Shown piece by piece: positions 11,351 to 40,024 of a stretch of DNA of 64,000 bases. Position 1 is the stretch's first letter, and every line of letters starts with the position of its first letter. Under the pieces are notes generated by a model. That model worked only from the letters and a program-made list of their open reading frames with translations, was not told the DNA's origin and ran no database searches. The DNA is from Eledone cirrhosa (lineage: Eukaryota): positions 31,124,001-31,188,000 of the forward strand of contig OZ024753.1 of NCBI GenBank assembly GCA_964016885.1. The letters are read 5' to 3'. Position numbers and translations under genes: made by a program.

Positions 11351-11368
11351 TTGCAGGTCAGAATGTGA
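11351..11368 (+). promoter_or_regulatory. Splice acceptor of the first coding exon and a start-stop uORF in its 5' UTR
   Basis: A polypyrimidine tract followed by TTGCAG|G (exon starts 11357). ATGTGA at 11363-11368. An in-frame TAA lies upstream of ATG 11425. Confidence 0.6.
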
Positions 11369-11424
11369 CAATAACTTCCAGAGGAATATCTTAAATTATT
11401 TCCCACCGAAAAAAAAAAAAAGAA

Positions 11425-12130
11425 ATGGATTGGCTATGGCACAGTTGCCATAGGATGAAACTGTTCACATTATTCTTTCTTTTATTTTGTTTTAACAAAT
11501 GTGTGTCACACACTGAAGTGCATATCGCTTCTATACTACCTCGAAACAATACTTTATTATTTTCTATAGACCGCTTGAAACCAGCTTTAGAATTAGGAAT
11601 TACATATCTCATGGAGGATCTGTATTTAAAAAAGTATTTTATCTTTAACGTGAGTTATGCAGATTCACACTGTTCTATTGCCGAAGCTATCAATGAAGCA
11701 ATAGGCATTTATATAAAGAAATCTGTAAATGTTTTCTTTGGCCCTGTTTGTGATATGGCGCTTGCACCAATTGCTCGCCAAGTGACCTTTTGGAATATAC
11801 CCCTCATAAGTGTTGGTGCTATGGCACGTGAATTTAATGCATTTAAAGAATCCTACCCTTTACTTACACGATCCGGTCCCCTTAACTTCAACAGTCTTTC
11901 CGGGTGTATTGCACGCTCCATGAAAAACTACAAATGGGAACGAGCGAAATTGCTTTATTACCAGCATGGTTTCGAATCACTTCCAAAGAAATTTTGTCAT
12001 CTCGTAACCGAGTCTCTTCATTATGACATACCCAATTTTGAGAAAAACATAACCACGGATCATTACCGCTTGGACAACGTGTCTGATTTTGATACCTTGT
12101 TCTTTGAAGAAATTGGAAACAAATACGCAG
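11425..12130 (+). CDS. First coding exon A: natriuretic peptide receptor / receptor guanylyl cyclase-like extracellular (ANF-receptor) domain, N-terminal part
   Basis: Signal peptide MKLFTLFFLLFCF, then VHIASILP...YADSHC...VFFGPVCDMALAPIARQVTFWNIPLISVGA...LLTR. The donor GCAG|GTAAGT falls after 706 nt (phase 1). Confidence 0.9.
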
Positions 12131-13024
12131 GTAAGTGAATGAATTTCACTATATATTATGTAGCTGTTATGTTGCACTTAATGTCCAAGTATATCTAATC
12201 TGGCCGAGTTTACACTCGCAAATAAGAAGAACCAGGGCCGTCCCTAGGAGCATTGAATTTGGTGTACTTCATATTTGTTGTGGTTGTTGAATACAATCAG
12301 GGGTCGCTGCTTCTACTGAAGGTTAATAGTTCTCTTCTAACTCGAGCGGGAGTGCCTTTCCATTGTAAATTTGCATTGATCATCTGCAAAGCCGCATTGT
12401 TCTCATAACCTCTACACCAGTTTTTCGAATGGAACTACTGCCACACATTGATTTGGCAGGATTTTCGTTTCAGATGGCCGTTGACTCTTATGAGTCTGCC
12501 CTTTGTCAGGTTTTGTTTTTTGTCCTGCAGGGTGTCCAAAATCACCCTCCTCACCAAGTAAACTTGGTGGGGTTGCCGATTTAGTCGCCGGCGACCCGAC
12601 CATGCGATAGGTTGGACTTAGTTACATACTACCAGTAGTACTCGAGAGTGACCTGACAACAAGATGTGAATAGTAAGCTTTCCCTGGGTTGAATCATAAA
12701 CTCAGTTACAGCCAACTGCCCAAGAATACAAATAATTACACACTATTAATTGTGTATGTTTGAAAACTTTCGTATGAGTATTTCTTTTTCATATCTTTCG
12801 TATAAATATCTTCCATTTATAGTTGAACTCTGAAATCCTTGAGTCGTATGTAGTAAACTGTTTTTCTTGTAAACACAAAATTGTTTGGCTATGTGAATTT
12901 CTTTTATCACTTTAGTTATATTTCGTAAATATATTCCATTTATATTTGAAACCTTTGAGTTGCAGATAAAATGTCTTTCCCTTGTAAGCAAAATATTTAA
13001 TTGGTACGAGAAATATACGTCACA

Positions 13025-13262
13025 AAGAAATCGAAAATGCAACTGGAGTCTTTTTAAGAATATTTATTTGTTTCCTTTACTGGTTTCACAGTTCTTATGC
13101 TTTTCAAAAGTAGAATTGAGATGTTTTCTTTTCGCATCTGATGCGAGAAAAATCACAAACCCTCCATCTCAATTCTACTTTGAAAAGCATAAGAACTGTG
13201 AAACCGGTAAAGGAAACAAATAAATATTCTTAAAAAGACTCCAGTTGCATTTTCGATTTCTT
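13025..13262. repeat. Fold-back inverted repeat, arms ~100 bp; single-orientation relative at ~42220-42400
   Basis: AAGAAATCGAAAATGCAACTGGAGTC...GAGATG pairs with CATCTC...GACTCCAGTTGCATTTTCGATTTCTT. Confidence 0.9.
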
Positions 13263-37807: not shown

Positions 37808-38322
37808 ATATATATATATATATATATATATATAATCAAGCAGGAGTAAGAACGAAAGAGTCTGTAGAAAAGTACATTATTATGAATGGAATAGTTAGAG
37901 AGGGAGAGAAAGTGTGAGTGGATGGTAGAAGAAAGAAAGAGTGTTAGAAAGAGTGTGAGAAAGACAGTATAGAAAGTACTATAAGGAAGTTGATCGAATG
38001 GAAATAATACGCGTATGTGTGTGGCGATTTATGTGCGATTCTGTTGTGCATCTATATATGTTTGTGCTTGTGTGTAAGCGCTTGTTTGCGGCCATAAGAA
38101 GATATTAGCCATCGTTTTGTTAGACAATAAGTAGATCGAGTGAGAAGAGTGAGAGAAAGGGTAAGAGAGAGAGATAATGTAGATAAATGGAAGGAAGGGA
38201 GAGTTGCAGGGGAGAGGGTGGAGTGATTAAAGAAATATGTTACAAGTGAAATTAGTAAAAAAAAAAAAAAGTGGCAAAGAATAAATAGAAATAACAGCAG
38301 CAGCATCACAAACGTCAGCAAG

Positions 38323-38557
38323 AGTCATCGTCGTTATTATCGTCACCATCATGATCATGATGAAATATAAAACTAAATACAACGCCAGCAACTGCCAAAA
38401 AGTAAGAACTTTATCGTCGCCCTCATCGTCGTCGTCATCATCGTCATTATCCTCATCACCATCATCATCATCATCATCATCGTCATTATCCTCATCACCA
38501 TCATCACCATCATCATCATCGTCATTATCCTCATCACCATCATCATCATCATCATCA
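38323..38557. repeat. (ATC/GTC)n triplet repeat just upstream of exon B
   Basis: Seen directly. It may lie in the 5' UTR. Confidence 0.9.
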
Positions 38558-38697
38558 TATTTATATGGATTATCACAGACCACCGGCTCACTGTACAATA
38601 AGTTAGTTGATCTTTAGGAAAGGAATGGAGGGGAGAGGAATAGAGAGGGAAGTCTAATAAAAGTATTGACCACAACAAATCCCCAGGAAAACAATAC

Positions 38698-39508
38698 ATG
38701 CCAATCACACTTGGACAGAGTTTGTTAATTATTTGGATTAATATGTTGGAGAAAAAGACACTCACCTGGATTCTTATTTACCTGGCTTTGCTACAATCAT
38801 GCTTATATTTTGCGAAACCCTTTGAAACGCAGTCGTGTCACAACTTATGTATGAAATGTAGTGGTGATAAATTTGCCAATAACACAACGGATACAAATAT
38901 GACAGTGGTTCGCATCGCAGTTCTGGTATCTACTAACAATAGTTTGATGTTTTCCATAGATCGAATATCGCCAGCTATTGAATTAGCGATAGAAAAAGTA
39001 AACCAGTCAGGTACCCTACCTTCAGTACGTTTCAAAGTGAATTACCAGGGTGCTAACTGTGACGCAACTCAACCTCCACTTGCTGCTTTTAAATTTTATA
39101 TAAATGACGACGTCGATATATTTTTCGGCCCCGTTTGTGAATATGCCCTGGCTCCAGTCAGTCGTTATTCTTTCTCTTGGAACATACCAGTAATTAGCCC
39201 CGGGGGTATGGCTCACGATTTCCAAGACAAAACTGAGTTTGGAAGTTTGACCCGTGTTGGTATTACATTCAATGGTCTCAGCGATTCGATACTTAGTATA
39301 ATCCATTATTATAACTGGAAACAGATTTATGTTTTATACAACAGCAACGAATTGGATATTATAACGTTTAGATTTTGCTTTTTCACTGTATCAGCATTGG
39401 CCTTTCGATTAACCAAGGAAAGTATATCATATAACTTTCACATTCTCGAAAAAGGAGGATTAAATATAAAGGATGTTTTACTGAAAAGTATAAGTACAAG
39501 TATTGCAG
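38698..39508 (+). CDS. First coding exon B: paralogous natriuretic peptide receptor / receptor guanylyl cyclase-like extracellular domain, N-terminal part
   Basis: Signal peptide (M)LEKKTLTWILIYLALLQSCLYFA (alternative start ATG 38743), then VRIAVL...FSIDRISPAIELA...DIFFGPVCEYALAPVSRYSFSWNIPVISPGG...LTRVG. The donor GCAG|GTAAGT falls after 811 nt (phase 1). Confidence 0.9.
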
Positions 39509-40024
39509 GTAAGTTATTCATTTTTGGAGCATGACAAAGTTATATAATCTTTCTTGATCACTTCTTTGTTATATTTGTTGCCTATCCTTAGGAAACTCTG
39601 CTTTAAGACACGTGACAGGCATTTACATCTTGTAAAATAGAGGTGAAAGACACATTGCTGTTGTAGAGTTAACGCCCTTCCTAGTCTCTTCATGCAACGG
39701 AGAAGAAGATATATATATATGTGTGTGTGTGTGTGTGTGAGCGTGTGCACGTGTATATGTAGATCGGGACTATTTTTTGGCTTCTAGGTCATGAGTTTTT
39801 TATATTTATAATTTCAAAAATTCTATCTGTGCACAAGAATGCTCTTAGTAGTTTACTTTGCAGTCAGGATACACAAATAAACATATTGGTTGACATATTT
39901 TTGTAGTTAGATTAACATTGATTTTTACAAGCTACAGGGCGAAAGGGAAGTGTAATATCAGGAACTTATCAACGTATGTAATTGGGACAATTTTGTAGGC
40001 TATGGGTTGCTGCAGTTGTAAGAA

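Follow-up and report, generated by a model that had tools for sequence, protein, structure and literature searches.

The window analysed here is a stretch of 64,000 nucleotides from Eledone cirrhosa (C13:31,124,001-31,188,000; window positions count from its first letter), and its proteins are nearest to Octopus entries. It carries two exons on the same strand, A and B, each encoding a likely signal peptide followed by the first half of an ANF-receptor ligand-binding domain, a unit referred to below as a head. Both exons lie on one gap-free contig, bounded by gaps at C13:31,053,986 and 31,186,678. The features of the window are the following:

11357..12130, + strand: candidate variable head exon A, with a 68-nt leader after a splice acceptor, ATG at 11425, 235 aa + 1 nt, head class II
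12131..12136, + strand: splice donor of exon A, phase 1, GTAAGT
12131..38742, + strand: interval between heads A and B, gap-free and without a constant exon, with repeats and mobile-element fragments
38743..39508, + strand: candidate variable head exon B, ATG at 38743, 255 aa + 1 nt, head class II
39509..39514, + strand: splice donor of exon B, phase 1, GTAAGT
62678..62877, strand not applicable: assembly gap terminating the contig of A and B

Each exon has its own ATG, at 11425 and 38743, and an intact frame, as proposed in the initial annotation of this DNA. The 235 stop-free codons of A and the 255 open codons of B run up to a GCAG/GTAAGT donor (after 12130 and 39508), and the frames end 2 and 8 codons past it, inside the intron. 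Both exons match Pfam ANF_receptor (PF01094) above the cut-off, with E values of 1.3e-15 for A and 3.4e-25 for B. They are 37% identical to each other across 171 aa (E 2e-35), and the motifs FSIDR, FFGPVC, WNIP.IS and LTR are present in both, as had been noticed before. The likely signal peptides, also part of that annotation, correspond to an 11-residue hydrophobic stretch within the first 25 aa (mean 2.8 in A and 2.5 in B), judged by hydropathy rather than by a signal-peptide predictor. The best PDB matches of head B are NPR-C (1jdn, residues 10-205) and NPR-A (1dp4, residues 7-184). Head B is 76% identical to the public protein P0009, which stops at the same position. The best retrieved relatives of head A, which never served as the sole database query, are just 43-51% identical.

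Two expressions of the initial annotation need to be narrowed. The splice exits of A and B had been called identical; the shared phase 1 holds, and extends to all seven heads described below, but the identical donor letters weigh little because GTAAGT is the usual donor consensus. Likewise, A and B stand as alternative coding starts, but A is probably a first coding exon rather than a true first exon, since a strong polypyrimidine/AG acceptor at 11357 precedes its ATG by 68 nt; its start site would therefore lie further upstream. Unlike A, heads B-F showed no such acceptor pattern upstream. Three single-base differences in exon B (38803, 39027, 39204) were seen in low-depth contigs of one sample; read by hand, two are silent and one changes Leu to Ile in the signal peptide, too few for a selection test. 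The window also contains mobile-element-like frames at 16658-17455 (+), 35791-36801 (+) and 62080-62883 (-), which we take to be GIY-YIG endonuclease ends of Penelope-type retroelements, and reverse-transcriptase-like fragments near 29593-30063 and 33906-34211.

In agreement with the initial annotation, no constant exon was detected between A and B or after B within the window. A tblastn search of C13:30.894-31.60 Mb with close cephalopod orthologues returned nothing beyond A, B, two further heads (C and D) and one exon 2. Searches with constant-region mini-profiles recovered only the exon 2 of a gene designated Y and three weak matches, none of them within the window; in a control, nearly the same profiles minus the cephalopod rows found 17 of the 18 known exons of the control region. 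The weak matches, which lie downstream of the window (E 0.008-0.03), were read individually and judged to be noise. Neither the profiles nor the orthologue search revealed a constant exon between A and B that the annotation might have missed.

The search of the flanking DNA that had been suggested led to more heads. Of 20 candidates scored in a genome query with B, 7 were matches (A-G), every one of them on C13, and a Pfam search of the region recovered the same seven. Outside the window, heads and second exons are placed as follows, all heads by the genome search with B:

C13:31,232,945, + strand: head C
C13:31,367,704, + strand: head D
C13:32.401 Mb, + strand: head E
C13:33.021 Mb, - strand: head F
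C13:33.681 Mb, - strand: head G
about C13:31,528,060, + strand: shared exon 2 of gene Y, ~365 kb after B
unplaced contig C675: exon 2 of gene X

All seven heads end in phase 1 before GT. Exon 2 occurs in two copies in the assembly (2/2 candidates), one for each of two paralogous genes; both copies start in phase 1, and any head joined to either of them reads V/I-[IV]-VLC across the junction. The seven heads are pairwise 28-50% identical, and A-D among themselves 35-50%. In this incomplete assembly, heads A-D are intact, follow one another in tandem on the same (+) strand, share phase 1 and have one exon 2 downstream. Head D has a long Asn-rich insert between signal peptide and domain. Head G is the exception among the seven: it starts mid-domain behind a splice acceptor, so that an intron apparently divides it, and its 5' portion was not found.

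The two paralogous genes, X and Y, encode receptor guanylyl cyclases and are arranged tail to tail. When cyclase genes were counted, as had also been proposed, only these two were detected in the 31-34 Mb region. Gene X is defined by O. bimaculoides XP_052826119, which corresponds to head E (71%) and the exon 2 on C675 (95%); its exons 3-4 are at 32.31 Mb and the remainder at 31.62-31.87 Mb. Gene Y is defined by O. vulgaris CAI9726822, a headless model matched at 85% by the exon 2 after D. The kinase-homology and cyclase exons of gene Y, which account for its kinase-homology, coiled-coil and cyclase domains, are at C13:31.99-31.90 Mb on the minus strand, most of them 80-97% identical to CAI9726822, and further exons are on the unplaced contig C1505; exons 3-4 of this gene were searched for in the assembly and not found. 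A transmembrane helix was located for gene X, and for gene Y a hydrophobic segment was seen at that place in the orthologue P0392 only. Body Y was assigned to A and B via the orthologue and the scaffold, not via a transcript. Splicing of A-D to the plus-strand cyclase at 31.85-31.87 Mb was considered and rejected, since gene X owns that body and the exon 2 downstream of D matches gene Y.

Exon counts in this region are lower bounds because the assembly is gapped, mis-scaffolded and devoid of gene Y exons 3-4. Three gaps separate A and B from the exon 2 of gene Y, head E lies on a contig flanked by gaps, and unplaced contigs hold the exon 2 of gene X and two exons of gene Y. The segment C13:31,589,325-31,796,486 recurs inverted at 32,033,122-32,244,936, on adjacent contigs. 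The apparent second body of gene X at 32.03-32.25 Mb was not accepted as real: with ~98% identity over ~210 kb, introns included, it is probably a haplotype retained in the assembly, which would make this part of gene X a false duplicate. The contig with the kinase-homology and cyclase exons of gene Y is probably mis-oriented. Flipping two gap-bounded contigs would yield a consistent layout, in which A-B-C-D and then body Y face body X preceded by E, F and G, and gene X likely carries these last three heads. At C13:31,974,214-31,980,423, in or beside the kinase-homology exons of gene Y, there is a ~6 kb tandem array with a period near 47 bp. Elsewhere in the genome, open frames of 1,677 and 1,689 aa at C13:7.27 Mb and C2:223.18 Mb match cyclase and ANF_receptor profiles and are apparently intronless receptor guanylyl cyclase genes.

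Heads joined to bodies were then sought in relatives. O. bimaculoides XP_014768315 consists of head C (72%) and the exon 2 of gene Y (94%), and O. sinensis XP_036361170 of the same head (78%) and exon (89%), D being skipped in both. P0432, a protein of 1086 aa from a 3,899-nt contig, combines a D-like head (59%) with a gene-Y-type body. The Octopus proteins retrieved contain only two bodies, X and Y, and each gene has one head or none; heads A and B were absent from the full-length cephalopod models retrieved. When longer proteins were searched with B, only fish NPR3 was found (6 matches among 1,187 candidates), and no full-length cephalopod protein. Models from abalone (51% identical to A) and scallop (45%) have A-like heads joined to bodies. 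Among the RNA runs searched with exon B, none was an RNA run holding it; three runs matching B were rejected as transcripts and behave as DNA, because their contigs read through the donor into the intron, without a joint.

Comparison with other molluscs, likewise suggested by the initial annotation, revealed isoforms that exchange heads at this same junction, which was recognisable in 101 of 120 homologues (the best 120 of 348). Same-species isoform pairs were taken from eight mollusc genera (Haliotis, Mytilus, Mercenaria, Mya, Argopecten, Ostrea, Saccostrea and Biomphalaria), the nemertean Lineus, the horseshoe crab Tachypleus and the insects Homalodisca and Venturia. Their bodies are 99.5-100% identical over about 810-950 aa, their heads mostly 22-49%, and the change falls exactly at the junction. 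The entries, RefSeq 'atrial natriuretic peptide receptor 1-like isoform X1-X15', are automated gene models. In a wider count, the junction was found in 122 of 141 full-length proteins, and an identical 240-aa block defined 79 body groups, three of which combine congeneric species. At least two proteins are present in 21 of the groups, and at least two distinct heads in 19 of these 21, a fraction inflated by the merging of near-identical isoforms in the database. Mercenaria has six heads on one body, and the Colletes and Cotesia groups have a single head only.

Many public models are of another form. Exon 2 is missing from 143 of the 150 best database matches to B, and 9 of the 150 contain at least two head-like stretches in tandem; five such tandem-head models, from Limulus, Batillaria, Bulinus, Lingula and Branchiostoma, were inspected. 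We attribute both the head-only and the tandem-head models to gene callers that could not handle this same architecture, and head-only entries would be expected because gene callers cannot bridge very long introns.

Trees of the heads separate class I (C and D) from class II (A, B, E, F and G) with a support of 100/99, the bootstrap being not quite settled. Six proteins lacking a matched junction were dropped from the trees, and the 49 rows of the class tree and the 41 rows of the AU set were hand-picked from an 85-row set. Class I heads end in Arg and fall on the vertebrate NPR3 side of the tree. Each class holds molluscs, a nemertean, annelids and arthropods. Because both classes span arthropods and lophotrochozoans, the two-class head system likely predates the split between them. 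The AU test rejects a single clade for A-D (p 7e-6) and likewise for the whole set of insect heads (p 0.005), both groups having been named after the first tree was seen, with an alignment of ~220 columns and a long insect class II branch. Since A-D are not one clade, the heads are older than the species split. Branchiostoma lanceolatum P0018, named NPR3, is a gene model of three head modules in tandem, which form a clade of their own; this grouping suggests a separate expansion, possibly an independent variable-head cluster in a chordate.

The reading of the locus as variable heads on a constant body, raised in the initial annotation, is supported by the seven heads against two copies of exon 2, the matching phase, the Octopus models and the protostome isoform sets. 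We judge it likely, with a probability of about 0.8, that one natriuretic-peptide-receptor-like guanylyl cyclase gene has four alternative first coding exons (A-D), A and B among them, which share its exon 2. Each of the heads A-D would be spliced in phase 1 to the single shared exon 2, so that one body, with its transmembrane, kinase-homology and cyclase parts, would carry different ligand-binding heads. Phase, counts and the models of relatives point to such splicing of A and B in Eledone cirrhosa, and the scaffold order across three gaps points to paralog Y as their owner. Each head may have its own promoter, a choice favoured by the example of gcy-28.c and.d in C. elegans; splicing from a shared untranslated exon stays an alternative to promoter choice, because A has an upstream acceptor. 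The heads would recognise different peptides and all raise cGMP via the same cyclase. This would likely give a single cGMP-producing body whose several ligand specificities are selected from cell to cell, and one gene would likely sense several different peptides.

The swapped part is only about half of the ectodomain. Two ectodomains of NPR-A bury the hormone between them, with Asp62 and Glu119 among its contacts (PMC5471452). Both of these ANP contacts fall within the range aligned with head B (7-184), that is, in the swapped part. Most of the remaining hormone contacts and the dimer face are presumably in this part as well.

Other explanations of A and B deserve consideration. One or both could be silent leftover duplicates, or could give rise to short secreted half-domains through read-in of the intron, which would fit the absence of transcripts for A or B, the lack of exon 2 in 143/150 of the best matches to B, and frames that stop 2 and 8 codons inside the intron. 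However, the frames of both exons are intact and their donors present, B is 76% identical to a relative with the same end position, the heads predate the species split (AU p 7e-6), and head-only entries would be expected where gene callers fail over very long introns. Half of a Venus-flytrap fold is, moreover, unlikely to be stable alone. We consider silent copies or half-domains improbable.

Ownership raises a different question, as the contig of A and B may be misplaced and A and/or B may be heads of paralog X within the same architecture. The surroundings contain gaps, a falsely duplicated block and one or more contigs that are probably flipped, and A resembles F (42% identical) and B resembles E (41%), both F and E being assigned to X. 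Nevertheless, the scaffold places A and B directly before C, D and the exon 2 of gene Y on one strand, and in the O. vulgaris accession order head C is followed by body Y, and this by head E together with body X. In addition, other mollusc genes have a class I and several class II heads, a set that A+B+C+D gives to Y; an assignment to X thus appears highly improbable. Least probable of all is a reading in which A and B each open a gene of their own, with downstream exons absent from the assembly or interleaved further away. Exons 3-4 of gene Y are absent, so other exons could be absent too, but there is neither gap nor constant exon between A and B, exon 2 exists genome-wide in just two copies, and only bodies X and Y are found among the Octopus proteins retrieved. 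We therefore favour A and B as alternative first coding exons of gene Y.

The variable-exon type of architecture is known already, as is the nematode gcy-28 case, and the RefSeq isoforms are listed without comment. In vertebrates, clustered protocadherin and UGT1A loci have tandem paralogous variable exons with a shared phase and common constant exons. Heads A-D resemble them in being in tandem, on the same strand, in phase 1 and upstream of one exon 2; they differ in that the proteins are unrelated, half an ectodomain varies, and the heads are few and very old. NPR-A, NPR-B and NPR-C belong to the same ectodomain family, class I heads being on the NPR3 side, but vertebrate NPR genes are generally described with one first exon per gene, unlike this locus. 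The isoforms of gcy-28 reportedly differ in their ectodomain. This gene is also a receptor guanylyl cyclase with alternative promoters and one 3' end, and one abalone isoform of the present receptor family is named 'gcy-28-like'. The isoforms gcy-28.c and.d have separate promoters, were cloned with different 5' primers and one shared 3' primer, and are expressed cell-specifically, c broadly and d in AIA neurons (PMC9249223). The locus described here differs from gcy-28 in having four + three heads across hundreds of kilobases. A literature search, mostly of open-access papers, found no paper on a variable-head receptor cyclase locus or on this arrangement across protostomes.

Few ligands of invertebrate NPR-like receptors are known (PMC6878697), and the Drosophila orthologue is said to lack functional studies (PMC12611267). 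We tentatively propose, as a possibility rather than an expectation, that variable heads have been a feature of the invertebrate counterpart of natriuretic peptide receptors since the arthropod-mollusc ancestor, with ancient, ligand-distinct heads chosen by the cell, at least seven ectodomains from two genes in octopus, and possibly mixed dimers. If this proposal is true, co-expressed isoforms could pair via their identical bodies and read combinations of peptides; it would also explain the orphan state of the receptor and supply a list of ectodomains to screen. If one gene has several very different ligand-binding heads, screens and trees based on one annotated isoform reach only a fraction of the repertoire, and many of the head-only entries called 'NPR3-like' or hypothetical would be mislabelled pieces of one gene. 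The locus would thus offer a defined panel of ectodomains for testing, and would represent an old variable-exon diversification in a signalling receptor, as opposed to an adhesion protein or an enzyme.
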